DNA from: an uncultured bacterium
GTDB lineage: Bacteria > Zixibacteria > MSB-5A5 > CAIYYT01
DNA: 64,000 bases
Assembly: GCA_963726455.1 (NCBI GenBank)
Contig: CAVSCK010000003.1
Location: 480,001 to 544,000, forward strand
Reading direction: 5' to 3'
The position numbers and the translations under genes were made by a program. The notes beneath the pieces were generated by a model that saw nothing but the letters and a program-made list of their open reading frames with translations, made no database searches and had not been told where the DNA came from. Position 1 is the stretch's first letter. Every line of letters starts with the position of its first letter. Shown here piece after piece: positions 48,515 to 63,960 of this stretch.

Positions 48515-51343
48515 CTACTTCTTCTTTGGTTTGTCGTCCTTCCCTGCCTGACGTTCCCTGATCGCAATTTGCGCAGCCGCCAGACGAGCAATCGGAACTC
48601 GGAAAGGTGAACACGATACGTAATTCAGTCCCGTACGATGGCAGAAACCGATTGAATCGGGATCGCCGCCGTGCTCACCGCAGATACCGGTTTTGAGATT
48701 CGGCTTGACCGATCGCCCTTTGTCCACAGCCATTTTGATAAGTTGACCGACACCTGCTTGGTCAATCGTAACAAACGGGTCACGCGACAGGATGCCTTTT
48801 TCGTAATAATACCTGAGGAATTTGCCGGCATCGTCGCGCGAGAATCCCATCGTCATCTGCGTCAAATCGTTGGTGCCAAAACTGAAGAAATCGGCCTCCT
48901 GCGCGATCTCGTCCGCAGTCAGCGCCGCTCGTGGAATCTCGATCATCGTGCCAACCAAGTACGGAATCTCGAACTTGTACTTGCGAGTCATCTGTTCCCC
49001 GATCCGCACGATAATTTCTTTCTGGTTGGCCAACTCGGCTCGTTGTCCCACCAAGGGCACCATGATTTCCGGGAAGACGCGTTTGCCGTCTCTCATCAGC
49101 TCTGCCGCGGCCATGAAGATCGCCTTAACCTGCATCTCAGTAATCTCGGGATAGGTGATGCCAAGCCGGCAGCCACGGTGGCCAAGCATCGGGTTCTGTT
49201 CGTGCAGACTGTCGATACGGTCAAGAATCTTTCTCAGGCGGCCGATATCCTCCGATTTTTCGTTTGCAGTCTCGGCGTCCTGAATCTGCTTCAGAACGTC
49301 CTCGCGTTTGGGAAGAAACTCGTGCAGCGGCGGATCGAGCGTTCTGATCGTCACCGGCAGACCTTCCATCGCTTCGAAGATCGCTTTGAAGTCTGCTTTC
49401 TGGAACGGCAGGAGCTTGTCCAGCGACGCCTGACGTTCATCTTGCGTGGTTGCCAGAATCATCGCCTGAATGTGCGGTAGACGATTCTTGCCGAAAAACA
49501 TATGCTCGGTTCGGCAGAGCCCGATTCCTTCGGCGCCAAATTTACGCGCCAGTGCCGCATCACTCGGTGTATCGGCATTGGTGCGAATACCGATCGCGCG
49601 CACTTCGTCGGCCCAGGTCATGAACGTGCCAAATTCCCCGGAGAGTTCGGGGTCAATGGTCGGTACTTCGCCCAGCATGACTTCGCCGGTGGTGCCGTTG
49701 ATCGTGATGACTTCTTTGTCCTTTACCACCAGAGTTCCGATGGCAAATTGCCGGCGTGCCTCGTAAACGCGAACATCTTCGCAACCGGCCACGCACGGTT
49801 TGCCCATGCCGCGTGCAACCACGGCTGCGTGGGATGTCATACCACCGCGGGCGGTCAAAACGCCTTCGGCTGCAATCATGCCGGCGATGTCGTCCGGATT
49901 GGTTTCAGTTCGGACCAGGATGGTCTTCTCACCGCGTTCAGCCAGGCGAACGGCCTCATCGGCGTGAAATACAACTTTGCCGGACGCCGCTCCAGGTGAA
50001 GCCGACAGCCCGCGTGCAATCACTTCAACGTCGGCGTTGGGGTCGATACGTGGATGGAGAAGCTGATCGAGTTGCTCCGGCTGAATGCGCAGCAGCGCTT
50101 CGTCTTTGGTAATCAGCTTCTCGTGAACCATATCCACGGAAATCTTGACGGCGGCCTGCGCGGTGCGTTTGCCGGTGCGCGTCTGGAGCATGTACAACTT
50201 GTTCTCTTGAATCGTGAACTCAAAGTCCTGCACGTCGCGGTAGTGTTTTTCCAGTTTGCCGGTGATGTCTTTGAGTTGCTTATAGGCCTCCGGCATCACT
50301 TTCGCCAACTCAGTGATAGGTTGAGGCGTGCGAATACCCGCGACTACGTCCTCACCCTGCGCGTTAACCAGAAACTCGCCATAGAATTCCTTGTTGCCGT
50401 TGGAGGGATTGCGCGTGAAGCCAACACCGGTGGCCGACGAATCTCCCATATTGCCGAACACCATCGCCTGAATATTGACGGCGGTGCCCAGATCAGATGG
50501 AATGTGATTGGCGGCGCGATAGGTGATTGCCCGTGGCGAATTCCAACTGCGAAATACAGCATCGCGCGCCATCTGCAATTGCATCCAGGGATCAGTTGGA
50601 AACGGTTCGCCGGACTTGGCGGTGATCAGCTTCAGGAACTGCTTGACGATATCTTTCAGGTCGTCGATTGAAAGCGACGCGTCATGTTTGATCGAACGTT
50701 GTCTTTTCTTCTTGGTGATGATCTCCTCAAACTGATCTTTGTCAATACCAAGCACGACATTTCCGAACATGGAGATGAATCGGCGGTAGTTGTCATAAGC
50801 AAACCGAGGATTGTTGGTCTTGGCGATCAGTCCCTTCAAGGTCTCTTCATTTAGCCCGAGATTCAGGATCGTGTCCATCATTCCCGGCATCGAGAATTTG
50901 GCGCCCGATCGCACCGAAACCAGCAGTGGATTCTTGGCATCACCAAACCTGGCTCCCATCGCCTTTTCAAGATGCTCCATGATCTGCTTCATTTCGCGAT
51001 CAAACGTTTTCGGCAAAGACATCTTGTTGTCGTAGTAGAGACGACAAACTTCGGTGGAGATGGTGAATCCCGGTGGCACCGGAATTCCCAAATTAGTCAT
51101 CTCGGCGAGGCCGGCGCCTTTTCCTCCCAGCGTGTCTTTCATCGCACCATCACCTTCGGCCTTACCGCCGCCGAAAGAATAGAAGTATTTACCGCCGGGA
51201 AGCAGCGACGGCCTCTTCTTTTCGACCGGAAGTTCTTTGATTTGAACTCCGATTTTGCGGGGCTTCAAAGGTTTTGCGGCAATTGCTTTTGGTTTGGAGG
51301 CAACTTTCGGTTTACTCTTCGGCGTCACCTTTTTCTTTGCCAT
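48515..51343 (-). CDS. ppdK: Pyruvate, phosphate dikinase
   Basis: LGGKGAGLAEM, PLLVSVRSGA, GGMTSHAAVVARG (phospho-His), GIGLCRTEHM and GICGEHGG. Confidence 0.97.
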   Translation of the reverse strand: MAKKKVTPKSKPKVASKPKAIAAKPLKPRKIGVQIKELPVEKKRPSLLPGGKYFYSFGGGKAEGDGAMKDTLGGKGAGLAEMTNLGIPVPPGFTISTEVCRLYYDNKMSLPKTFDREMKQIMEHLEKAMGARFGDAKNPLLVSVRSGAKFSMPGMMDTILNLGLNEETLKGLIAKTNNPRFAYDNYRRFISMFGNVVLGIDKDQFEEIITKKKRQRSIKHDASLSIDDLKDIVKQFLKLITAKSGEPFPTDPWMQLQMARDAVFRSWNSPRAITYRAANHIPSDLGTAVNIQAMVFGNMGDSSATGVGFTRNPSNGNKEFYGEFLVNAQGEDVVAGIRTPQPITELAKVMPEAYKQLKDITGKLEKHYRDVQDFEFTIQENKLYMLQTRTGKRTAQAAVKISVDMVHEKLITKDEALLRIQPEQLDQLLHPRIDPNADVEVIARGLSASPGAASGKVVFHADEAVRLAERGEKTILVRTETNPDDIAGMIAAEGVLTARGGMTSHAAVVARGMGKPCVAGCEDVRVYEARRQFAIGTLVVKDKEVITINGTTGEVMLGEVPTIDPELSGEFGTFMTWADEVRAIGIRTNADTPSDAALARKFGAEGIGLCRTEHMFFGKNRLPHIQAMILATTQDERQASLDKLLPFQKADFKAIFEAMEGLPVTIRTLDPPLHEFLPKREDVLKQIQDAETANEKSEDIGRLRKILDRIDSLHEQNPMLGHRGCRLGITYPEITEMQVKAIFMAAAELMRDGKRVFPEIMVPLVGQRAELANQKEIIVRIGEQMTRKYKFEIPYLVGTMIEIPRAALTADEIAQEADFFSFGTNDLTQMTMGFSRDDAGKFLRYYYEKGILSRDPFVTIDQAGVGQLIKMAVDKGRSVKPNLKTGICGEHGGDPDSIGFCHRTGLNYVSCSPFRVPIARLAAAQIAIRERQAGKDDKPKKK

Positions 51344-52024: not shown

Positions 52025-52732
52025 CTAAGTGATCATCTTTATCCAGTCACGAATGTACTGTATCCTATAGATTAACAACGAGATACGCGCCATGACTGTG
52101 TATCCGAACGTCGCTCCGAATCCAATCATTAGAGTATAGATACCCAATTTGGCGGCTCCACCCCAAGCGCCCTTATGCGCCTTGGAGAAAAAGAAATATA
52201 TCAGCGACGACATGGTACCAACGATGACGACGACATCCCAAATCCCCTGCGGGACTCCAAGAAATCCAGCCGTACTCCAGTCGAATCCAAGCCCTATCGT
52301 CGTTCCGCGAAGCTGTGATAGCACGTTGTTCTTCATGGTAACGGGAATGGCAATACCGCTGGAGATACCCAGAAACAAGGCGAGCGGATAACGGCTTATC
52401 CAGGCATACTTTCTGGAAAATCGCGTCCACATTGCAATACCGAGCAGGGCAGGAATAATGTAGTAGAACTCATCGAATTTCGGCTTCCAGGTATTGTACT
52501 GCACTTTCGTGACCGGATCGACGGCAAAATCGAATAAGTGGCTAAGAAGATTGGGATTAATACCGTTGTAGTAAAGCAGAATGGCCCAGTAACCCACGGA
52601 GACACCCACTACCAAATGCTCCGCGAACTTATAGAAAGGATTGTCTTTGTATAGAAAAGAGAACAGGCAAAGCGTCAAGAAGACACCCACCGTTGTCCAA
52701 ATTATCGTGTCCGTGCTAAAAGTCTGTTCCAT
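52025..52732 (-). CDS. Cassette 3 subunit D: uncharacterised multi-TM protein
   Basis: FSFLYKDNPFYKFAE and YFFFSK.HKG...MIGFGATFGYTVMARISLL; paralog of D1 and D2. Confidence 0.85.
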   Translation of the reverse strand: MEQTFSTDTIIWTTVGVFLTLCLFSFLYKDNPFYKFAEHLVVGVSVGYWAILLYYNGINPNLLSHLFDFAVDPVTKVQYNTWKPKFDEFYYIIPALLGIAMWTRFSRKYAWISRYPLALFLGISSGIAIPVTMKNNVLSQLRGTTIGLGFDWSTAGFLGVPQGIWDVVVIVGTMSSLIYFFFSKAHKGAWGGAAKLGIYTLMIGFGATFGYTVMARISLLIYRIQYIRDWIKMIT

Positions 52733-53589
52733 TATTTACTCTCCTGTTTCGGAGCGCTCTTGCGTTTGCTGAGGAAGAAAGCCAGGTTCCCCATAATAAT
52801 GAAGATGATAATCACCACATGCGCGAATACCTGTACTTTCATCGCCTCGGTTGCCGTTCCGGGATTCTTGCAGAGAGTCTCATATTCTGCAGCCCCTTTC
52901 ATCCCGCCGATGATTCCGAATATCTGCTTCGATTGATAGTAGGGGTAGTAGTCGGCCGCCATAACACCGGTCATCGCCAGTGCGAGCTTCACGTTATAAC
53001 GAGCGTTTCCATCAGCGACCCACATGTCCGAGACGTTGCCTGCCGACAGATTAATGACGCCTTTGATGTTGTCATAATTCTTGATACCGCGCATCATGGG
53101 AATGGAGTCAAGGGTGGTACCGTAGTAATCTTGCGGAAAAGGAATACGGAAATTCATACCCATGCCGAGGATGATAATGCCGGGATAGGGTTTGTAGCCG
53201 AGGTAGACATAATCGATCCCACGTTCAGGCTTGAACCCGTGATAGACCAGGCAGGAATCCGCCACGTCCCTTACGATTTCTTCGGCCATCTGAGCACCGG
53301 TCTGTGACAATGTGAGAGTGATTACCTTAAGTTTCTTGGCGTAGCACTGCTCCAGCATGGCATAGGCCACCGGGTTTAGTTCCGCCAATGAACCCGGATC
53401 GTAATCCAATGAGAGCAGGATATAGTCGCCCGGTTTCAGGGCTTCAATGAAGTCGTAGATTTCCCTGACTTCCTTGACCGGAGTCAGTGGAACAGTAAAT
53501 GGAATAAACAGTGGAGTGATAACAAAAACCAGTAACACCGCAAAAACCCAGCGGCGATCGAGAGCCAAAAGTCGGTCGTGAAATGTCAT
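52732..53589 (-). CDS. Cassette 3 subunit C: TM - soluble alpha/beta domain - TM
   Basis: DRR.VF, DYDP...EL.P, DYVYLGY, YPY and GIIGGMKGAAEYE...HVVII.FII.GN. Confidence 0.85.
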   Translation of the reverse strand: MTFHDRLLALDRRWVFAVLLVFVITPLFIPFTVPLTPVKEVREIYDFIEALKPGDYILLSLDYDPGSLAELNPVAYAMLEQCYAKKLKVITLTLSQTGAQMAEEIVRDVADSCLVYHGFKPERGIDYVYLGYKPYPGIIILGMGMNFRIPFPQDYYGTTLDSIPMMRGIKNYDNIKGVINLSAGNVSDMWVADGNARYNVKLALAMTGVMAADYYPYYQSKQIFGIIGGMKGAAEYETLCKNPGTATEAMKVQVFAHVVIIIFIIMGNLAFFLSKRKSAPKQESK

Positions 53590-53601
53590 GCCATTCTCCT
53601 C

Positions 53602-54237
53602 TCAATCCTTGCCCAGGTATGAACGTTCAATACCCAGCACAATCTTTAGCGCGGTGGCAACCCCGCCCAGACCGACACCGATGAGGATTGCGCGTTTCGC
53701 GGCCAAATTCGGCACCATTAACATCCAACTACCCACCTGGTTGATCGGATCAGCGAGCGGTCCCGTCGGTATTACTCGCATCATCAACAGGAGAGCCGCG
53801 ACGAGCAATACCGTCGAGACAGCTGAACGGGCGCGAAAAGCGCGGTATGATGCCGAGGCGATATAGAACGCGAGCAATGCGAAGATGGTCGCCTGTATCG
53901 GGATGAAGATGTTGCTGTAAAGCAGGCGGAAGATCGTGCCGTTGAGACCGTTAAAGACCTGGGACCCCTTGATCGTAAGTCCAAAGACAATCATCGCAAA
54001 CATCGAGACCAGGACTACCACACTGTATTGCCAATCTTCGGAACGGCGCTTTATCTTGTAATAGCCGACGTGAATTTGCGACCAGATACCGAGTACCATC
54101 GCAAAAATACCGATTACCGTTAGCCCGTCTAAAGCCACTTCATAGAAGCGTAGCGATGGTTCGGACGGAACAAAGTACTGAATGGCCAGCAACACACCGA
54201 AAACGAAAACCAATATTAATGGAATCTGTTGTTTCAT
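53602..54237 (-). CDS. Cassette 3 subunit B: uncharacterised multi-TM protein
   Basis: MKQQIPL and FALLAFYIASASYRAFRAR...PN.AAKRAILIG...LGIERSYL; start moved to ATG 54237 after GGAGG. Confidence 0.85.
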   Translation of the reverse strand: MKQQIPLILVFVFGVLLAIQYFVPSEPSLRFYEVALDGLTVIGIFAMVLGIWSQIHVGYYKIKRRSEDWQYSVVVLVSMFAMIVFGLTIKGSQVFNGLNGTIFRLLYSNIFIPIQATIFALLAFYIASASYRAFRARSAVSTVLLVAALLLMMRVIPTGPLADPINQVGSWMLMVPNLAAKRAILIGVGLGGVATALKIVLGIERSYLGKD

Positions 54238-54247
54238 GCCAACCTCC

Positions 54248-55495
54248 TCACCACCAGGGCGCGTCAAAGGGTTTACTGAGGAAATCTGCTCCAGTGAATA
54301 CCCGGAGAGCGAGAAGGACAACCATGCCGGCAAGCACGATGGCTTTGAGATAGTCTTGCGCTTTCAGCGTTCCGAGTAGCAGGGGCTCCCGGCCGAGATA
54401 GGCACTAGCAGCATACAGTTCCTCACCCAGCAGAGTATAGTCGCAAGCGACCACAAAGAAAGGCAGCTGCGAGACCTGGTCCGTGCCCGCGATTTGGATC
54501 GAACCGGCAAGGACTCCCGTTTCCGCCAGCAACAGCGATTCGGCGGCGAAATAACCGAGATAAATGTTGGTCGCCGGTTTTTCCCGGAGAATCGTTCCAT
54601 TGACTGCGGCGACGTACGGGAACTGCTGACTGGTCACGTAGTAGACGGAGTCTTCTTTGTAAGTGTCGGGCCGTCCCGCATCGGCATAGCCTGTCTTCAC
54701 GGTCTCCTGCGCAATGGTCATTACGACGGGATCACAGCAAGGGACAATCATCGAAGTCTGGTATTCTGCCACTTTGCGCGCCACGCGACCGAGCACGGTA
54801 AACGAGGCGATCGTGGCAATGTCTCCGGCGGTTCCAATTCCTAACACGTACAGGATCGGTTTGCCCATTTCGGTGGCACGACCGATAGCTTCATCAATGG
54901 CTTCGATACCCGCCAGCGGGCGCACATAAAGATCGATGCCCTTCTTGGCCATGTTGATTAATTTGACGGTCAGAATCAAGAAGATGATGCAGAAGAGTAG
55001 CTCCGGCATCTTCATAGAGTTGAACCAGTTGTCGTAGGCCTGTACGGGTCCGCCCGCTGCCGGTGCGCTCTTTCCGCCCGGGCCAACGGCATAGACGCGA
55101 TAGTACAGATTCGTGTTCTTCGGCAAATATTCGGGACTTGTCTTATCGCGGTTCCCTTTGTCCGCATAACTGGAATTTCCCAGAACGACTGTCCCCGCTT
55201 TCAGCCACGCCGAATCGGGAGCGTCGGGTGAAGTCGCGCGATAAATGTCATAACTGATCACGTTCTTCTTACCAGCGCCGTCATCAGGTGACAGGGTCCA
55301 TTTCACCTGGACACCATGGCCGTCATCGTTGGGAAGATCTTTTAGAGTTACATTAGAGGGCGGCGCGGGCGGTTCCGACGGGATCACCGCCGTTTCAGCG
55401 GGAGGGTCGGAGGTCGCCGTCTGCGCCAATATTGCCTGAGTAAGGCAAAGTGACATACAGATCAGGAGGAACAATATCAGATGTTTCACTTCCAC
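54248..55495 (-). CDS. Cassette 3 subunit A: signal peptide - FN3 - TM - conserved domain (DUF6754-like by recollection) - TM
   Basis: DLPNDDG FN3; R.LAGIEAIDEAIGRATEMG; PFFVVACDYTLLGEELYAASAYL. Confidence 0.85.
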   Translation of the reverse strand: MEVKHLILFLLICMSLCLTQAILAQTATSDPPAETAVIPSEPPAPPSNVTLKDLPNDDGHGVQVKWTLSPDDGAGKKNVISYDIYRATSPDAPDSAWLKAGTVVLGNSSYADKGNRDKTSPEYLPKNTNLYYRVYAVGPGGKSAPAAGGPVQAYDNWFNSMKMPELLFCIIFLILTVKLINMAKKGIDLYVRPLAGIEAIDEAIGRATEMGKPILYVLGIGTAGDIATIASFTVLGRVARKVAEYQTSMIVPCCDPVVMTIAQETVKTGYADAGRPDTYKEDSVYYVTSQQFPYVAAVNGTILREKPATNIYLGYFAAESLLLAETGVLAGSIQIAGTDQVSQLPFFVVACDYTLLGEELYAASAYLGREPLLLGTLKAQDYLKAIVLAGMVVLLALRVFTGADFLSKPFDAPWW

Positions 55496-55517
55496 CTCGC
55501 GTGGCTTAAGGATTTTG

Positions 55518-56336
55518 TCACAATATATTCAACCAGTCTCCGAAGAGAAAGGTAATTCTTCCCACCAGCAGCGAAATGCGCCCCATTACCGTGTATCCAA
55601 ACGACGCACCGAAGGTGATCATCAGAATCCAGATTCCGATTCGCGACGCGACACCAAAGGCGCCTTTGTGTTCTTTCGAGAAGAAGAAGTAGATCAGTCC
55701 GCACATCACGCCGACAAAGATTACCCAGTTAGTCAGGATAGCTATGAACTGTCCATCGGCGGCCAGCGACACATGGCTGATGAAATCGCCCACTCCTTTC
55801 CAGTCAACAAAGAGCGGAATGAATGAGTTGGCGACCTGACTGATAAAATCGGAACGGAGATAGCGAGTCAAGTTAAGGCCGGCGGTGGCGCCGATAATGA
55901 ATGCCAACGACCAACGCGACATCCAACCGACTTTGGGCATCAATCGCATCAGCAAAATCAAACCAAATATGATTGGTATGTAGATTAGGACGTGATCCGC
56001 CTGCGCCTGATATGGCACTTTGAAAAATTCCGACAGGGTCTGGGACGCGCGCGGCACGAAGTTGCCTACGACGGTACTCCAGAAGCCGTAGCACATCCAA
56101 TAGCCGGCTGAGATGCCGACGTACAGACTTTCTGCAAACTTGTAGAATGGATTGTCGCGATAGAGAAATGAGAATATTGATAGCGTCAGAAACACCGCGA
56201 AAGTGATCAGGAAGCCGTCGCGGATATTCATGAATTGTGATTCTGAAGTGCCACTGCTTGATTTGGTGATCCAGCTAATGACGAATACCAAAGCCACTAA
56301 GGCCATCACGATTCTGCCGGCGGTCTTCATGTTCAT
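55518..56336 (-). CDS. Cassette 2 subunit D
   Basis: FSFLYRDNPFYKFAE and YFFFSKEHKG...MITFGASFGYTVMGRISLL; extra N-terminal TM. Confidence 0.85.
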   Translation of the reverse strand: MNMKTAGRIVMALVALVFVISWITKSSSGTSESQFMNIRDGFLITFAVFLTLSIFSFLYRDNPFYKFAESLYVGISAGYWMCYGFWSTVVGNFVPRASQTLSEFFKVPYQAQADHVLIYIPIIFGLILLMRLMPKVGWMSRWSLAFIIGATAGLNLTRYLRSDFISQVANSFIPLFVDWKGVGDFISHVSLAADGQFIAILTNWVIFVGVMCGLIYFFFSKEHKGAFGVASRIGIWILMITFGASFGYTVMGRISLLVGRITFLFGDWLNIL

Positions 56337-57241
56337 AATTTACCGCCCTTTTTGCGTGATCTGAAATAAGCCACATTACCAATTACTATGAATGCGATGA
56401 TAACCACGTGAGCCATGGTCTGCGGCCCCATCATGCGCAGAGCGGGCATCGGCTTCTTTTCGAAGCGTGGATAGGTCTTGAGCAGTTGTGATTCATACTC
56501 CGCGGCGCCCTTGGTTCCACCAAGCAAGCCCACGAGCTGTCGGGGCCAATAAGGGTACAGAAGCGGAGTTGAGACCGCCGCCGAGCCGCCTGCCGTCGGC
56601 ACCTTGCCCGGATCGCCCGCAAACAGCACCCATTCCTTCACACCTGGTTTACCGCCGCCAACGGAAATCAGCAAATCCATATCCTTGAGCGACTGGACAT
56701 CCTTGAACATCGGCAGCGAATCGAGCGAATTGCCATAGGCGTCAGAGGGAAACATCTTGCGGAAATTCGTAATGACAACATTAAGTACGCCCTCGTTGCC
56801 GGCTTTGTACCCGAGATTGCAGTAGTCTACCCCGTACTTGGCATCGGGAAAATCCGGTTTGAGAACCTGGTCCAGACTCAACCTAAGCAATGACTGCCCG
56901 GTTGCCCAAAGTGACATAAAGTAGAGTCGGTGCTTCTTTTCGAGAATGTGCCTGATAAAAGCATCGGTCATCGGCTGAACTTCCGGTGCCATGGCGGGAT
57001 CGAAGTCGTAAGACAGCACAATTTTCGATCCGGGCGGCAGACTCTCGATCTTGTCGAACACATTCTTCACGATCGGAGTTGCGACTTCGCCGAATTCAAG
57101 TCGGAAAATGATCGCCAGCGCCACCGTCAGTCCGACGAACAAGTACACAATACGCCGGTCAACATCGCGGCCTTTAATGGACAGGTAGAGAATCCAAAGC
57201 AGCCCGCCACCGATAACGATAATCGAAACTATCAGACCCAT
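56333..57241 (-). CDS. Cassette 2 subunit C
   Basis: DRRIVY, DFDP...EVQP, DYCNLGY, YPY and GLLGGTKGAAEYE; start moved to ATG 57241, 1 nt after the B2 stop. Confidence 0.85.
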   Translation of the reverse strand: MGLIVSIIVIGGGLLWILYLSIKGRDVDRRIVYLFVGLTVALAIIFRLEFGEVATPIVKNVFDKIESLPPGSKIVLSYDFDPAMAPEVQPMTDAFIRHILEKKHRLYFMSLWATGQSLLRLSLDQVLKPDFPDAKYGVDYCNLGYKAGNEGVLNVVITNFRKMFPSDAYGNSLDSLPMFKDVQSLKDMDLLISVGGGKPGVKEWVLFAGDPGKVPTAGGSAAVSTPLLYPYWPRQLVGLLGGTKGAAEYESQLLKTYPRFEKKPMPALRMMGPQTMAHVVIIAFIVIGNVAYFRSRKKGGKL

Positions 57242-57242
57242 C

Positions 57243-57917
57243 TCAACTATCCCCTCCCAGGTAGCTGCGCTCAATGCCCAGTAGCAGGCGTAGCGACATC
57301 GAAATTACCCCCAGCGAGATTCCAATCATGATGGCACGTTGTCCGGCCAGGTTAGGGGCATTCATAATCCAAATTGCCAGATTGGGAATTTGCAGCACCG
57401 AGAGCTGATCCGGCACCCAATTTGTCAAGAGCACGCCCAGTGCCGTTCTCCCTAACAAAATTATGAACGCGGCAACAAGAAGTATCGTGGCTTCGGTATT
57501 CTTGGCACGGAATGCCCGATACGATGCGGACGCGACAAAGAAAGCCAGCAGCGCGTACATCGTCGAATTCAGCGGCGACATGACGTATTGGAATAGAAGC
57601 TGGAAGTAAGAGCCCGTTTGCGAAAGATCGCCTGAGATACCCCCGGAATTGCCAAGCTTGAACAGCCCGGTCGCCAGCATCAGACCAAAGCCAAATAGAG
57701 TAACGATTGAATAGCCCCAGTCCTCTGATTTGCGGCTGATCTTTTCGGTATGAACGCGAATGAGGTTGCCACCACCAAGGAAGAACGCGAATACGGCGAT
57801 TATGTCGAAATAGAGTGAAGCATCTTCCTGCAAGTATTTGGCCGAAGGCACAAACACCGACACGACCAGCAGTGTGCCGACCGCGGAGAGAATAAGCATG
57901 GGAATCTGGCGTTTCAC
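57243..57917 (-). CDS. Cassette 2 subunit B
   Basis: MKRQIP and ALLAFFVASASYRAFRAKN...PNLAGQRAIMIG...LGIERSYL. Confidence 0.85.
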   Translation of the reverse strand: MKRQIPMLILSAVGTLLVVSVFVPSAKYLQEDASLYFDIIAVFAFFLGGGNLIRVHTEKISRKSEDWGYSIVTLFGFGLMLATGLFKLGNSGGISGDLSQTGSYFQLLFQYVMSPLNSTMYALLAFFVASASYRAFRAKNTEATILLVAAFIILLGRTALGVLLTNWVPDQLSVLQIPNLAIWIMNAPNLAGQRAIMIGISLGVISMSLRLLLGIERSYLGGDS

Positions 57918-57932
57918 TGTCTTGTCTTACTC

Positions 57933-59201
57933 CTAGCCCGTCGAGAACATCTCACGCAGCACTTTTTCAACCCAAACCATGGAACCCCATCCCCAGGCGC
58001 TGGCAATAGTTGTGGCAATCACGCCGACCAATATCACGATCATGGCAATGGCTTTGCCGACATCCTGCCCTTTGAGCGAGCCCATTTGGCGCGGTTCTTC
58101 CGAAAGATAAGCCGATGCGGCAAACAGTTCTTCGCCGATCAATGTGTAATCACAGGCAGCGACAAAGAAAGGCAACTGCGCTGGCATGGCGGTTCCGGCG
58201 ATTTGAATCGCACCTATTGAGTTACCGGTTTCGGCCATAATCAGCGATTCGGCGAAAAACGCCCCCAGGAAGAAACAGGCCGCGGGTTTTTCGCGTACCA
58301 TGATGCCGTCAACGGCCGCAACAAATCCGAACTGCTCGTCGGTGACATAATGAACCATGTCATCGTTATAGGCATCCGGCCGACCGGCAGTCACATAGGC
58401 CTGCTTGATCGTCTCGCGCGCGGCAGTCATCACCAGCGACGCACGCACCGGCATATTGATCTTGGTGTCGTACTCCGCCACGGTGCGGGCGATTCTTCCC
58501 AGAATCGTCAGTCCCGCAATCGTCTGCACATCGTCCATATCCTGAATACCGGCAACGAAGAGAATCGGGCGCCCCATCTCGGTTGCGCGACCGACGGCTT
58601 CATCAATGGCCTCCAAGCCGGCGATGCGGCGCAGAAATAATTTTGTGCCTCGCTTAGCGCTTTCGATAAACAGAATCACCGCGCCGCAGAAAATGACGCC
58701 GATGATCAACACCCAGGCCAACCGCGTATCGAACCACTGCTTCTCAGATTGAGCGGGCGCCGAAGGTTCGGAGGTTACCTTGTTGTTGTTGACCAGGGCG
58801 GCAACAGTGTAAGTATAGCTGCTGTCATCGGATGTATTTCTATCTTCGTAGGAACGGGTCGCAAATGGAGCAACGTCGATCGAGTCGATCTTATTGGAGA
58901 TGACGTTCGTGCGCCGGATTTCGAAGCCCCGGAAATTGTCGAGCTTTTCGTAACCGGGATCCTTCCATTCGACAGTGATCGAACCACCGGCATCGTTGTC
59001 GGTATCGAAGGCCTTGACAGTTACGGCGCCTAGATTGGGAATGGTCTGAACGGGCGTTGACGGCAGCAACGGCTTAAGTGTGTCACTCGTCGGCGTCGCA
59101 CTTTCGACCGCGAGTAGACAACCACTCAAAGAAATGAATAGTACCGTAACCAGGAGAAATATGAGGGCATCAAGCTTCGCAATGCGAAGGGGTGCTGTCA
59201 T
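57933..59201 (-). CDS. Cassette 2 subunit A (FN3 + DUF6754-like)
   Basis: DTDNDAG FN3; RRIAGLEAIDEAVGRATEMG; PFFVAACDYTLIGEELFAASAYL. Confidence 0.85.
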   Translation of the reverse strand: MTAPLRIAKLDALIFLLVTVLFISLSGCLLAVESATPTSDTLKPLLPSTPVQTIPNLGAVTVKAFDTDNDAGGSITVEWKDPGYEKLDNFRGFEIRRTNVISNKIDSIDVAPFATRSYEDRNTSDDSSYTYTVAALVNNNKVTSEPSAPAQSEKQWFDTRLAWVLIIGVIFCGAVILFIESAKRGTKLFLRRIAGLEAIDEAVGRATEMGRPILFVAGIQDMDDVQTIAGLTILGRIARTVAEYDTKINMPVRASLVMTAARETIKQAYVTAGRPDAYNDDMVHYVTDEQFGFVAAVDGIMVREKPAACFFLGAFFAESLIMAETGNSIGAIQIAGTAMPAQLPFFVAACDYTLIGEELFAASAYLSEEPRQMGSLKGQDVGKAIAMIVILVGVIATTIASAWGWGSMVWVEKVLREMFSTG

Positions 59202-59207
59202 AAAATG

Positions 59208-59864
59208 CTATTTAACCAGTTTCAGCCAGTCGGTGAGCAAGAAATCAATTCGTCCCAACAGGAGCGACATACGGCTCATGACCGTGTATCCGAATGACGC
59301 GCCGAAGGTGATCATCAAGAACCAAGTGCCGACTTTGGCGGCTCCGCCAAAAAGGCCCTTGTGCTCTTTCGAGAAGTAGAAATAGATAAGACCCGTGATC
59401 GTACCGATTACAATCACAAATCGTCCAATAATTTCGTAGCTGTTCCCCGACGCGACTGCTGCGACCGTGTCGACGACCGTCCCGTGGACCTGAGCCACGG
59501 CATTGGTTGAGAAGTAGGTCATCATTCTCAAACCGACCGTGGCACCGACGATGAACGCCAGCGGCCAGCGCGCAATCCAGCCCGCCTTGCCGATAAGGCG
59601 AGTGAGAAGCATTACGCCGAGGATGATACCGCCAATAAACCAATAATCCGGGTCAGGGAGACCCTGAGCGTCTAGATGATTAATACCACTGACGATCGGT
59701 CGATACAGACTATCCCAGAAATAAGTAATGAACCAGAATCCGGCAGAAATTCCGATGAATATCGCCTCGGAGACCTTATAGAAAATATTGTCCCGATACA
59801 GGAATGAGACAATTCCGAGGGTCAAGAGAGCAGCGAGCCAGATGCCAATCAATGTGCTGTCCAT
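59208..59864 (-). CDS. Cassette 1 subunit D (true start MDSTL at 59864; the ORF-track fusion is an artefact)
   Basis: SFLYRDNIFYKVSE and YFYFSKEHKG...MITFGASFGYTVMSRMSLL; GAAGGG RBS. Confidence 0.85.
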   Translation of the reverse strand: MDSTLIGIWLAALLTLGIVSFLYRDNIFYKVSEAIFIGISAGFWFITYFWDSLYRPIVSGINHLDAQGLPDPDYWFIGGIILGVMLLTRLIGKAGWIARWPLAFIVGATVGLRMMTYFSTNAVAQVHGTVVDTVAAVASGNSYEIIGRFVIVIGTITGLIYFYFSKEHKGLFGGAAKVGTWFLMITFGASFGYTVMSRMSLLLGRIDFLLTDWLKLVK

Positions 59865-59875
59865 CGGATTCCCTT

Positions 59876-60860
59876 CTATTCCCTTACTTCCTTGCGTTTG
59901 CCAAGGAAGAGTGCCACGTTGCCGATGATAATAAAGGCAATCACTACGATATGAGAAAAGGACTGGGCGAGTATGTAAGTTGTTGCTTTCGCCTATCTCG
60001 CCGGTTGCCATTTCAAATTCGGCTGCGCCCGTCATACCACCCGCGAGCCCTTTTAGTTTTCCTGAACTCAGGTAGGGATACACCGACGGCGCTTGAACAG
60101 CGGTGTTGCCGGCGCCAAGATCCTTGCCAAAACGATCGACGGCAATCTGCACCCATTCGACAGTGCCCGGATAGCCGGCGGAGAAATTGATTACGTAATC
60201 AATGTTGCTGAAATTTTCTACTCCTTTGAGCAAAGGAATGCTGTCATACAGAGTGTTGTAAATGTCACGCGGGAAAGGATCGCGGAATGATCTCCCCATA
60301 CGCTGAACCAGAAATTCGTTGCCCGATTGGAATCCGAGATTGACGTAATCAGTCCCGTACTTCAGATTCATCTTCTTTACTTCCGGTTCCTCCAGGGCTC
60401 TGACCACCGACATATTGGCCTGCTGAGGTCCCTGAGGCCACAAACCCATGATAATAACCTTCAGGCCATGCTTGAACGCGTATTTCATAAATGCATCAGC
60501 CATCGGTTGCAGTTCCGGCGCTGAAGGGGGATCATAATCAAATGCCGCCAAGACTTTCGAACCGGGCTCGAGCTTGGTAATCGCGTCGTAAAGCAATTGA
60601 ACTTCGGGAGAAATCTTCACCGGCGGGCGGAAACTCATGAAGAATGGAAGTGTCAGTGAAACGGCGATAAAGACAAACACTGTGCGCCTGCCAACCGGTC
60701 TACCTATGATAGTCAGTATGAGCATGCCGACAAGGGCAAGGAACAACAAGACCGTTACGACAACTGAAACGGATGATGAGAAAGAAAGGGGCTTGGGGAG
60801 CACGATAATCAAGATCAGTAATCCAAGCAGCACGAACCAAGGGGTATACTTCTTCATCAT
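59876..60860 (-). pseudogene. Cassette 1 subunit C, frameshifted near 59990 (likely sequencing error)
   Basis: DYDP..ELQP, DYVNLGF, YPY and GLAGGMTGAAEFE. Removing one base near 59990 gives KATTYILAQSFSHIVVIAFIIIGNVALFLGKRKEVRE*, matching the C2/C3 C-termini. Confidence 0.85.
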
Positions 60861-61531
60861 CAGCCTTCCAGATGTGACCTTTCAATACCGAGCATGATTC
60901 GGAGCGCCGTCGATGCCGTGCCAAGAGCAATGCCTATCATGACTGCGCGCTGCCCTGCGGTCTGGGGAAATGCCATCAGCCAATTAGAGAGATCGGAGAG
61001 TCGATAACCCTCTGGCATGAATCCCGTTAGTAAGTCACCGACAGGCACCCTGCCTATCATCACAAAGAAAGCCGCAAGCAACAGCAGTGTCGCTTGCAGG
61101 TTCCGGGCTCGGAAAGCTCGATAAGAAGCCGAAGCCACGAAGAACGCCAAGATCGCGAACATCGTTGACGAAAGCGGCGTATAGACGTATTGATACATCC
61201 AGTCAAAATGGGTTCCTGGATCGCGGAATGAGCCGGGCGGATTCATCCCCAGACCTTTGAAGCCGTCATAGGCGCCGACGGCAACCATAATAAGGAAACA
61301 AACGATAATTATGAGTGAGATCGGCCAATCCTTCGCCTTTCGGGAGATATTGAACAACTGAATCTTCAAGAGACTGAGTGCCCCTAACCAAACAGCGAAC
61401 GCGCCTGCCATGGCGAACCAGAGATTGAAAATCTGTTCTGATCGGCTGAAGGGATCATGAGGGATAAAATATGAAACAAGGAATACGAGTCCGGCGACGA
61501 ATGTGATGATTAAGGGTACTTCGCGTTTCAT
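60860..61531 (-). CDS. Cassette 1 subunit B
   Basis: MKREVPL and FAILAFFVASASYRAFRARN...PQTAGQRAVMIG...LGIERSHL. Confidence 0.85.
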   Translation of the reverse strand: MKREVPLIITFVAGLVFLVSYFIPHDPFSRSEQIFNLWFAMAGAFAVWLGALSLLKIQLFNISRKAKDWPISLIIIVCFLIMVAVGAYDGFKGLGMNPPGSFRDPGTHFDWMYQYVYTPLSSTMFAILAFFVASASYRAFRARNLQATLLLLAAFFVMIGRVPVGDLLTGFMPEGYRLSDLSNWLMAFPQTAGQRAVMIGIALGTASTALRIMLGIERSHLEG

Positions 61532-61549
61532 ATCTATAAACTCAATTGA

Positions 61550-62767
61550 CTAACTTATCTTCAAGAGTAAATCTGCCAGATTGATATTGAATATCGCCAG
61601 AATAAGCAGCACTACAATCGCCAGCATGAAAAGGCCCTTCGCAAAGTCCTGTCCCTTAAGCGAACCCAAGAGTCGAGGTTCTCTCTCGAGATAGGCGCTT
61701 GCCGCAAACAGCTCTTCTCCAATCAGTGTGTAATCGCAAGCAGCCACAAAGAACGGAATCTGCGCCGGCTGGTTGGTACCGGCAATCTGAATAGCACCGG
61801 CTTCGTTTCCGGTCTCTACCAAAATCAGTGACTCAGCAAAGAACCCCCCCAGATAGAACATGGTAGCCGGTTTCTGGCGCATGACCATGCCGTCGATCGC
61901 CGCCGCATACCCAAACTGGTCATCGGTGACGTAGTGCACCATGTCTTCCTTGAAGGCATCAGGCTTGCCGACTTTGCTGTAGGCTTCTCTGACCGCCTCT
62001 TTGGCCGTCATCATCACGAGTGACTTGGATACAGGTACGTCGAGCTGAGTTTCGTTCTGAGCACAGATACGCGCAACGCGACCCAGGATCGTGATGGCAG
62101 CAATAGTGGCAACGTCATCCAAGTCCTGAATGCCCGGGACGAAAAAGACCTTGCGACCCATTTCCGTCGCCCGGCCGATGGCATCGTCTACAGCATCAAT
62201 GCCGGCGATTTTGCGGACATAGAGCTCTTTGCCGGACTTGGCCTGATAGATATAAAACAAAATCGCAATGGAGACCACGATCGTCCAAATCAAGATGTTC
62301 ATCCGGCGCATATTGAACCACTGCGCGATTGGCTTCACCGGCCCAACTGTCTCCGATTCACTCCTGCCCGCCACCACGGTACTGTCTGCCTTGTTCAGGT
62401 CACTGACCGCAGCAATCCTGTAATAATAACTCGAATCCATGGTTACGTTGTTATCAGTAAATGCGTTTTGCCCTTTCGTGGTCTCACCGACGACTACGAA
62501 CGGTCCGCCTGTCGATGTTGAACGCAGGACCTGATATTTGGTCACTAATCGCTGATCATCCGCCGAAAGCTGCCAACTGACGTCCAGAGCCGAGCCATTG
62601 TCATTCGGCGTGTCTTCGGCAACGACGTTGGTTGGTGGCGCCGGATTCTCAGTTGTGACTTGAACGGATTTAGCTGAATCGACAGGAGTATTTGTCTGAG
62701 AGAAGATCGGGGTGCAGAGCAGGAGAATTACTGCGATCAAGAAGACGGATATTCTGAGACGCCGCAT
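61550..62767 (-). CDS. Cassette 1 subunit A (FN3 + DUF6754-like)
   Basis: DTPNDNG FN3; RKIAGIDAVDDAIGRATEMG; PFFVAACDYTLIGEELFAASAYL. Confidence 0.85.
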   Translation of the reverse strand: MRRLRISVFLIAVILLLCTPIFSQTNTPVDSAKSVQVTTENPAPPTNVVAEDTPNDNGSALDVSWQLSADDQRLVTKYQVLRSTSTGGPFVVVGETTKGQNAFTDNNVTMDSSYYYRIAAVSDLNKADSTVVAGRSESETVGPVKPIAQWFNMRRMNILIWTIVVSIAILFYIYQAKSGKELYVRKIAGIDAVDDAIGRATEMGRKVFFVPGIQDLDDVATIAAITILGRVARICAQNETQLDVPVSKSLVMMTAKEAVREAYSKVGKPDAFKEDMVHYVTDDQFGYAAAIDGMVMRQKPATMFYLGGFFAESLILVETGNEAGAIQIAGTNQPAQIPFFVAACDYTLIGEELFAASAYLEREPRLLGSLKGQDFAKGLFMLAIVVLLILAIFNINLADLLLKIS

Positions 62768-63033: not shown

Positions 63034-63960
63034 CTAGTAGCCGAGTAATTTCAGATGCTCCTTGTAAGTTGCAGCCGATTTCTGCAGGGCTGACAACTCC
63101 TTCTGCTCCAGCTTCATTTCCACGATCTTCTCGACACCAGTCTGTCCGAGAACCACCGGCACGCCGATGTACATGTCATTGATGCCATACTGGCCGGTCA
63201 GGAACGCGGAGCAGGGATACAGCTTCTTCTTGTCGTTCAGCACCGAGTCGACCATTGCCACGGTAGCAGCAGCAGGTGCATAATATGCGGAACCGGTCTT
63301 TAGCAGGGCGACGATTTCACCACCGCCGTTGATCGTACGCTGACTGATCGCTTCGATCCGATCAGGAGCCATAAGTTCCGTAATCGGCACTCCAGCCGCT
63401 GTAGTGTAGCGCGGCAACGGCACCATCGTGTCGCCGTGACCACCCAGAACCATCGCCTCGGTCTCGGTCTGCGCTATTCCCAGCTCCATCCCAATGAATG
63501 TCCGGAAGCGGATCGAGTCCAGGATACCGGCCTGACCAAACACGCGATTGGCCGGAAAACCGGAGACTTTGTAGGCATGGAACGTCATCAGGTCAAGCGG
63601 ATTGGCGACCATCAGAATTATCGCGTGGGAGGCGAACTCCTTGACTTTCTGCGCCACCGAGCCAATGATCTCCGCGTTCTTGGTCAACAGATCTTCGCGC
63701 GACATTCCCGGTTTGCGAGCCAAGCCGGCGGTATGAACCACTATGTCCGAACCGCGCATATCCGCAAAGTCATTTGAACCCTTGATTGTGACATCATACC
63801 CGCGAATCGGCCCCGCCTGCATCAGGTCGAGCGCCTTCCCCTGCGGCATTCCTTCGACGACGTCGATCAACATGATGTCGCAAAGATTGCCCTCGGCCAG
63901 ATACTGTGCAACCGCTGCACCGACATTTCCGGCCCCGATTACCGTTACTTTTCTACGCAT
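63034..63960 (-). CDS. mdh: Malate dehydrogenase (LDH-like)
   Basis: GAGNVG, GKALDL, ARKPGMSREDL (Arg specificity residue), LDSIRF, LGGHGD and GGGEIV.LLKTGSAYYAP. Confidence 0.96.
   Translation of the reverse strand: MRRKVTVIGAGNVGAAVAQYLAEGNLCDIMLIDVVEGMPQGKALDLMQAGPIRGYDVTIKGSNDFADMRGSDIVVHTAGLARKPGMSREDLLTKNAEIIGSVAQKVKEFASHAIILMVANPLDLMTFHAYKVSGFPANRVFGQAGILDSIRFRTFIGMELGIAQTETEAMVLGGHGDTMVPLPRYTTAAGVPITELMAPDRIEAISQRTINGGGEIVALLKTGSAYYAPAAATVAMVDSVLNDKKKLYPCSAFLTGQYGINDMYIGVPVVLGQTGVEKIVEMKLEQKELSALQKSAATYKEHLKLLGY

Follow-up and report, generated by a model that had tools for sequence, protein, structure and literature searches.

Subunits A and C of a four-gene bacterial membrane module share a build and are predicted to face opposite sides of the membrane, with no detectable homology

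The window analysed here is a 64,000-nucleotide stretch of DNA from an uncultured bacterium (GTDB lineage Bacteria; Zixibacteria; MSB-5A5; CAIYYT01), namely positions 480,001-544,000 of the forward strand of contig CAVSCK010000003.1 in assembly GCA_963726455.1. According to its list of open reading frames (ORFs), the minus strand at 52025-62767 carries a cassette of four genes, A-B-C-D, three times in tandem. An earlier note on this DNA had proposed that subunits A and C of the cassette are distant homologs that face opposite sides of the membrane, each with an alpha/beta domain between two transmembrane (TM) helices. Here, we have found that the common build is borne out by structure models and that the opposite orientation is supported, while homology of A and C is unsupported by every sequence test that was run (BLASTP, profile-profile comparison, a unit matrix, Pfam and a language model). 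We favour the reading, with a probability of roughly 0.6, that A and C, as distinct subunits of a single conserved A-B-C-D inner-membrane module, have the same build and work on opposite faces of the membrane. A and C are alike in their build and in the general class of their fold, and no evidence shows that either arose from the other by duplication followed by inversion.

The sequence strings cited in the earlier note are present in A2, C2 and C3, all of which are minus-strand ORFs, as are the other cassette genes of the window. A2 (57933..59201, 422 residues) and C2 (56333..57274, 313 residues from a TTG start and 302 in its database form) are the proteins that had been aligned by eye. We modelled both as full-length chains with AlphaFold2, which was given alignments of the two families (115 A and 150 C sequences), and the mean predicted local distance difference test scores (pLDDT) were 89.7 for A2 and 95.7 for C2. 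The A2 model consists of a signal helix, the strands of an FN3 domain (61-143), a TM helix (159-183), a helix (196-209) and, in the C-terminal part, six strand-helix units (213-367) followed by a TM helix (370-403). The exported FN3 domain (approximately residues 55-150) is encoded at 58752..59039 and the DUF6754 region (residues 153-403) at 57993..58745. The C2 model has an extra N-terminal helix, a TM helix (40-56), a helix (67-78), six strand-helix units (84-273) and a TM helix (277-311), and its alpha/beta domain (residues 57-276) is encoded at 56447..57106. The four blocks of the by-eye alignment coincide in both models with strand 4, strand 5 and its helix, strand 6 and its helix, and the last TM helix. 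Since these are equivalent elements, the alignment is in structural register; this part of it stood, and the sequence likeness that it seemed to display did not rise above chance.

When A2 was compared with C2, and A3 with C3, by BLASTP, no significant match emerged, the best expectation value (E) of 0.087 falling inside a TM helix. Comparison of the A and C profiles with hhalign, in four runs on growing alignments, gave probabilities of 3.1%, 2.9% (local) and 7.7% (global), and 8.2%, which is the highest value reached. The sole stretch aligned in each run paired the first TM helix of A and its basic patch with the last TM helix of C. The comparison was also restricted to the soluble domain, to its halves, and to the C-terminal half together with the TM helix, in eight runs with column-reversed alignments as controls. 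Only for the C-terminal half with the TM helix did the real score exceed those of the reversed controls; all other runs failed to do so.

The unit matrix, in which each strand-helix unit of A was scored against each unit of C with profile scores, showed no excess on the diagonal. The in-register sum was reached by 305 of 720 permutations when z values were used and by 271 of 720 with raw scores. The pairs 4-4, 5-5 and 6-6, which correspond to the by-eye register, had z values of -0.8, 0.6 and -0.1, and the strongest pairs were off-register (unit 1 of A with unit 6 of C, z 7.1; unit 2 of A with unit 4 of C, z 4.8). In a Pfam scan, DUF6754 was matched at E <= 1 by none of the 150 C proteins, and the 25 most-matched families of A had none in common with those of C. 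When language-model neighbours were sought in the ESM Atlas, all 30 neighbours of C fell in one set of clusters, its own family, which has no common Pfam family; the A domain had no usable neighbour after clusters of DUF6754 and fn3 were skipped. On these sequence comparisons, mirror-image paralogy fails at detectable homology, the one defining test that was run.

A link of either subunit to eIF-2B-like proteins was also considered. It was hinted at by a match of A2 to IF-2B (E 0.13 in Pfam, 0.0055 in NCBIfam) and by eIF2B chains in the Foldseek list of C. We put this link at chance level: no more than 3 of the 115 A members reached E <= 1 (best 0.11), and the 25 families listed for C do not include IF-2B.

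Several observations weigh against our reading that A and C are simply two different subunits. In the A2 and C2 models, thirteen domain elements run in identical order, and the seven paired helices have correlated lengths (r 0.81, reached in 46 of 5000 permutations). In both proteins, a helix separates the first TM helix from strand 1, and the domain runs straight into the terminal TM helix. Judged from the models, the match in build exceeds what 'both alpha/beta' would mean. The exception among the restricted hhalign runs had a P value of 0.0056, compared with 0.07 and 0.18 for its reversed controls, and the alignment behind it is partly in the by-eye register; this was a single run out of eight, and it draws on the TM helix. 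The profile of A is shallow, with an effective number of sequences (Neff) of 2-3, so that the power of profile comparison is limited. An archaeal phosphopantothenate synthetase appears in the Foldseek lists of both A and C with probabilities of 0.92-0.96; its TM-scores are 0.18-0.37 and these matches were not counted as evidence. Moreover, the subunit roles suggested below are inferred from gene context and by analogy.

The alternative that draws on these observations is an ancient paralogy of A and C. A gene of TM-domain-TM build would have been duplicated within the module and one copy flipped, to give a pseudo-symmetric antiparallel pair whose sequence similarity has been erased. We regard this as unlikely. 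The common order of the thirteen elements, the correlated helix lengths and the marginal hhalign P value are what such a history would leave behind, and it is also favoured by the mirror-image Lys/Arg bias of A and C described below and by the two genes always lying in one operon, with congruent trees. Yet BLASTP, hidden Markov model and profile-profile searches found no significant match between A and C, the soluble domains aligned no better than reversed controls, and the unit matrix had its strongest pairs off the register that the common order would predict. B and D should pair too if the module had arisen in this way, yet hhalign gave them a probability of 2.6%. Finally, the inverted pairs in the available part of the mini-review PMC3962082 have 4 to 6 membrane spans and the dual-topology proteins, their putative precursors, are described there as small; that part describes no large globular domain that would need to fold on both sides of a membrane.

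A duplication of AB into CD was likewise rejected as unsupported, the other cross-pairs having hhalign probabilities of 0.2-4.2%. More doubtful still than the paralogy itself is its extension, in which A and C would be very old inverted paralogs of TM-Rossmann-TM build that form the pseudo-symmetric frame of a new transport or signalling machine driven by an actin-fold ATPase. If this were true, one fold would be at work on both faces of the membrane, with a driver that is not an ABC, P-type or V-type ATPase, and a large soluble domain would be found on opposite sides, unlike the small polytopic pairs in the available part of PMC3962082. A mirror-image duplication, if true, would also widen the set of known routes to internal symmetry in membrane complexes.

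Our preferred reading, two different subunits on opposite faces, draws its second half from the distribution of charged residues. We counted Lys and Arg in the 15-residue flanks of the four TM helices in the 115 A and 150 C sequences. At the first TM helix of A, the mean count was 0.86 before the helix and 4.81 after it, on the domain side, with more after it in 114 of 115 sequences and one tie. At the last TM helix of A, the mean was 2.10 on the domain side and 1.08 after the helix (84 sequences with more on the domain side, 5 with the reverse and 26 ties). The bias is opposite in C. Its first TM helix has a mean of 3.61 in the N-terminal tail and 1.52 on the domain side (135 in favour of the tail, 3 the reverse, 12 ties), and its last has 1.86 on the domain side and 4.05 in the tail (128 in favour of the tail, 4 the reverse, 17 ties). 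This opposite bias, read by the positive-inside rule, places the domain of A in the cytoplasm and that of C outside the cytoplasmic membrane. The basic DRR stretch that had been pointed out before the first TM helix of C3 is indeed present, and the corresponding D39, R40 and R41 (C2 numbering) are nearly invariant in the 150 C sequences.

Three independent hints agree with this orientation. In A, a signal peptide and an FN3 domain stand ahead of the TM helix. A relative of C, P0286, has approximately 560 residues of CARDB-type repeats inserted in its domain, and CARDB repeats are typical of surface proteins. In natural C-D fusions (P0253, P0268 and P0346), the last TM helix of C is retained. 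The earlier proposals that the A domain is cytoplasmic, following an exported FN3 domain and one TM helix, and that the C domain is likely extracytoplasmic have held up, the former on the Lys/Arg bias, the signal peptide and the FN3 domain, and the latter on the Lys/Arg bias of 150 sequences and the CARDB insert. That the two domains face opposite sides of the membrane is supported as a prediction from the positive-inside rule and domain context. Any other orientation is very improbable: its one opening is that the call depends on this rule and context, and it is opposed by a strong bias that is consistent at all four TM helices and by each of the three hints.

The structure searches describe the folds in general terms. 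The C domain has a parallel sheet of alternating strands and helices, as in a Rossmann-like three-layer alpha/beta fold, and whole-chain Foldseek searches of the PDB gave weak matches only, to generic Rossmann-like proteins (best E 4.8e-4, TM-score <=0.32). The N-terminal part of A matches FN3 in both sequence and fold. FN3 filled both lists of the whole-chain searches with A, and all 50 listed rows of one search lay within residues 31-162. Apart from the FN3 domain of A, no solved relative of A, B, C or D was found. The one PDB match of B, to subunit F of an Mrp antiporter (E 0.084), was taken as chance.

The A domain has 47 invariant columns across its 115 sequences. Where the last TM helix of A begins (A2 residues 377-383), D380 and K383 are invariant in the same 115 sequences, and in the last TM helix of C (C2 residues 282-300) the polar residues Q285, H289 and N300 are nearly invariant in 150. 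These polar residues are candidates for a polar path or for a helix contact within the membrane. The C family accepts large inserts at one site, just ahead of strand 3, in P0286, P0242 and P0250-type relatives, and P0242 has two tandem C domains between one pair of TM helices. The Pfam scan found nothing in the inserts of 13 longer C relatives.

The module is no rarity. In a one-genome-per-species collection, 629 stretches encode a relative of A. Among the groups given in the titles of these records are Zixibacteria, Ignavibacteria, Gemmatimonadota, Planctomycetota (with the cultured genus Gimesia), Acidobacteriota, Fermentibacteria, WOR-3, Coatesbacteria and Cloacimonadota. DUF6754 (PF20539, with a curated cut-off of 27 bits in Pfam) exceeded its cut-off in A1, A2 and A3 and in 115 of 115 A-family members. 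All 81 sampled genomes of the host phylum contain it, most of them with 4-5 copies, and the 14 well-known control genomes lack it. Grouped at 50% identity, the C family comprises 4750 clusters, of which 150 were used here. No Pfam or NCBIfam family exceeded its cut-off in B, C or D. The order of the genes in the cassette is conserved in many phyla. Gene context was counted in the 77 loci that were kept: a full A-B-C-D run on one strand was found in 66, a contig end cuts 9, and the remaining loci, L034 and L081, have room for partners, none of which was detected. No paper in the library that was searched names 'DUF6754' or 'PF20539'. This four-protein membrane module is widespread, and no literature on it was found.

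This genome has five copies of the cassette, three in the window, one on the contig labelled C1 and one on the contig labelled C4. In the copy on contig C1 (L003 1-2331), A has 290 residues and no FN3 domain, and B and C come next. On contig C4 (793270-794017; L005, L006), a fifth and more divergent DUF6754 gene is split over two frames and is followed by B-like and C-like genes. The A and C trees, the latter a quick version, both cluster the paralogs by their position in the array, and the single cassettes of Gimesia and Acidobacteriota branch beside position 2 in both. As the two trees are congruent, the cassettes were copied long ago as whole units.

Two further genes recur with the module. 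A gene of the MutL/GlmL family (PF13941) occurs once in this genome as a 635-codon gene on the contig labelled C5 (L084 1414-4428), followed by a second gene of approximately 375 codons that belongs to no family; this one GlmL-like pair is detached from the five cassettes. PF13941 was found in five of the five genomes of other phyla that have the cassette. The GlmL-like gene was present within 6 kb of the cassette in 30 of 77 loci, and this count was the same (30 of 77) for the second gene. Ten listed loci (L050, L051, L056, L057, L058, L061, L065, L067, L068 and L078) have the order GlmL-like gene, second gene, A, B, C, D on one strand, with the pair directly upstream.

How the module could work is suggested by this gene context. 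In A as in C, helices at the two ends of a Rossmann-like alpha/beta domain would anchor it in the membrane, and B and D would form the membrane-embedded core. The domain of A (DUF6754) is predicted to lie in the cytoplasm behind the exported FN3 domain, and that of C outside, where it could meet a ligand or a partner. We argue that the very conserved inner domain of A may couple the module to the cytoplasmic actin-fold GlmL-like protein and its second protein of approximately 375 residues, for which it could provide the docking site. Knowing the side on which each domain lies is a first step to a working model, as it indicates on which side a ligand might bind and to which part a cytoplasmic motor might attach.

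The range 52732-62767 of the window covers A1-B1-C1/D1, A2-B2-C2-D2 and A3-B3-C3, and D3 lies just beyond its edge. A1 (61550..62767, 405 residues) has a signal peptide, an FN3 domain, a TM helix, the DUF6754 domain (E 2.5e-117, 391 bits) and a second TM helix. It is followed by B1 (60860..61531, 223 residues), a polytopic membrane protein by hydropathy, and by C1 and D1, which are read as a single frame of 550 residues (59208..60860), with the C1 part extending to about 59990 and the D1 part starting from about 59850. The frame shifts at about 59980-59995, and the expected C-terminal TM helix and stop codon of C1 stand in another frame. A one-base change of frame in C1 has thus removed its anchor TM helix and lets the reading run on into D1; either the assembly is wrong here or the gene is broken.

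In the second cassette, the DUF6754 match of A2 has an E of 4.1e-127 and 423 bits. Its N-terminus (59100-59201) has a signal sequence that ends in a lipobox-like L-S-G-C; the signals of A1 and A3 look ordinary and cleaved. B2 (57243..57917, 224 residues) and D2 (55518..56336, 272 residues), the latter a polytopic membrane protein, were assigned from their ORFs and hydropathy. The third cassette consists of A3 (54248..55495, 415 residues; DUF6754 E 6.5e-112, 373 bits), B3 (53602..54333, 243 residues from a TTG, the true start being probably further in), C3 (52732..53589, 285 residues) and D3 (52025..52732, 235 residues). The cassettes are flanked, at 48515-51343 and 63034-63960, by genes of pyruvate phosphate dikinase and of the lactate/malate dehydrogenase family, as assigned by Pfam.

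Among known systems, the closest parallel to the opposite orientation of A and C is given by inverted-topology paralog pairs. YdgE/YdgF and YdgQ/YdgL are MdtI/MdtJ and RnfE/RnfA, and NqrD/NqrE is a further case. Table 1 of PMC3962082, in the part of that paper available here, lists YdgE/YdgF and YdgQ/YdgL as inverted-topology pairs and calls the partners homologous. Like such pairs, A and C are encoded in one operon, with B between them, and have opposite Lys/Arg bias. Unlike them, A and C have no homology that any of our tests could detect. The membrane proteins also differ in shape, since the pairs in that part of PMC3962082 have 4 to 6 membrane spans, and in A and in C two TM helices enclose a globular domain of 190-220 residues. 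In Pfam, the domain of unknown function DUF6754 covers subunit A alone.

The comparison of the C domain with KTN/RCK domains of Trk/Ktr and with domain III of transhydrogenase gave scores at a level that is common for unrelated models. KTN/RCK domains and domain III of the proton-translocating transhydrogenase are cytoplasmic, whereas the C domain is predicted to lie outside. Group II energy-coupling factor (ECF) transporters are uptake systems in which one shared energising module serves several membrane units. No sequence or fold relation to ECF or ATP-binding cassette (ABC) systems was found, and the candidate energiser of the module would belong to the actin-fold MutL/GlmL family instead of the ABC ATPases. 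As a functional analogy only, the arrangement in this genome, with one GlmL-like gene pair for five cassettes, resembles that of the group II ECF transporters.

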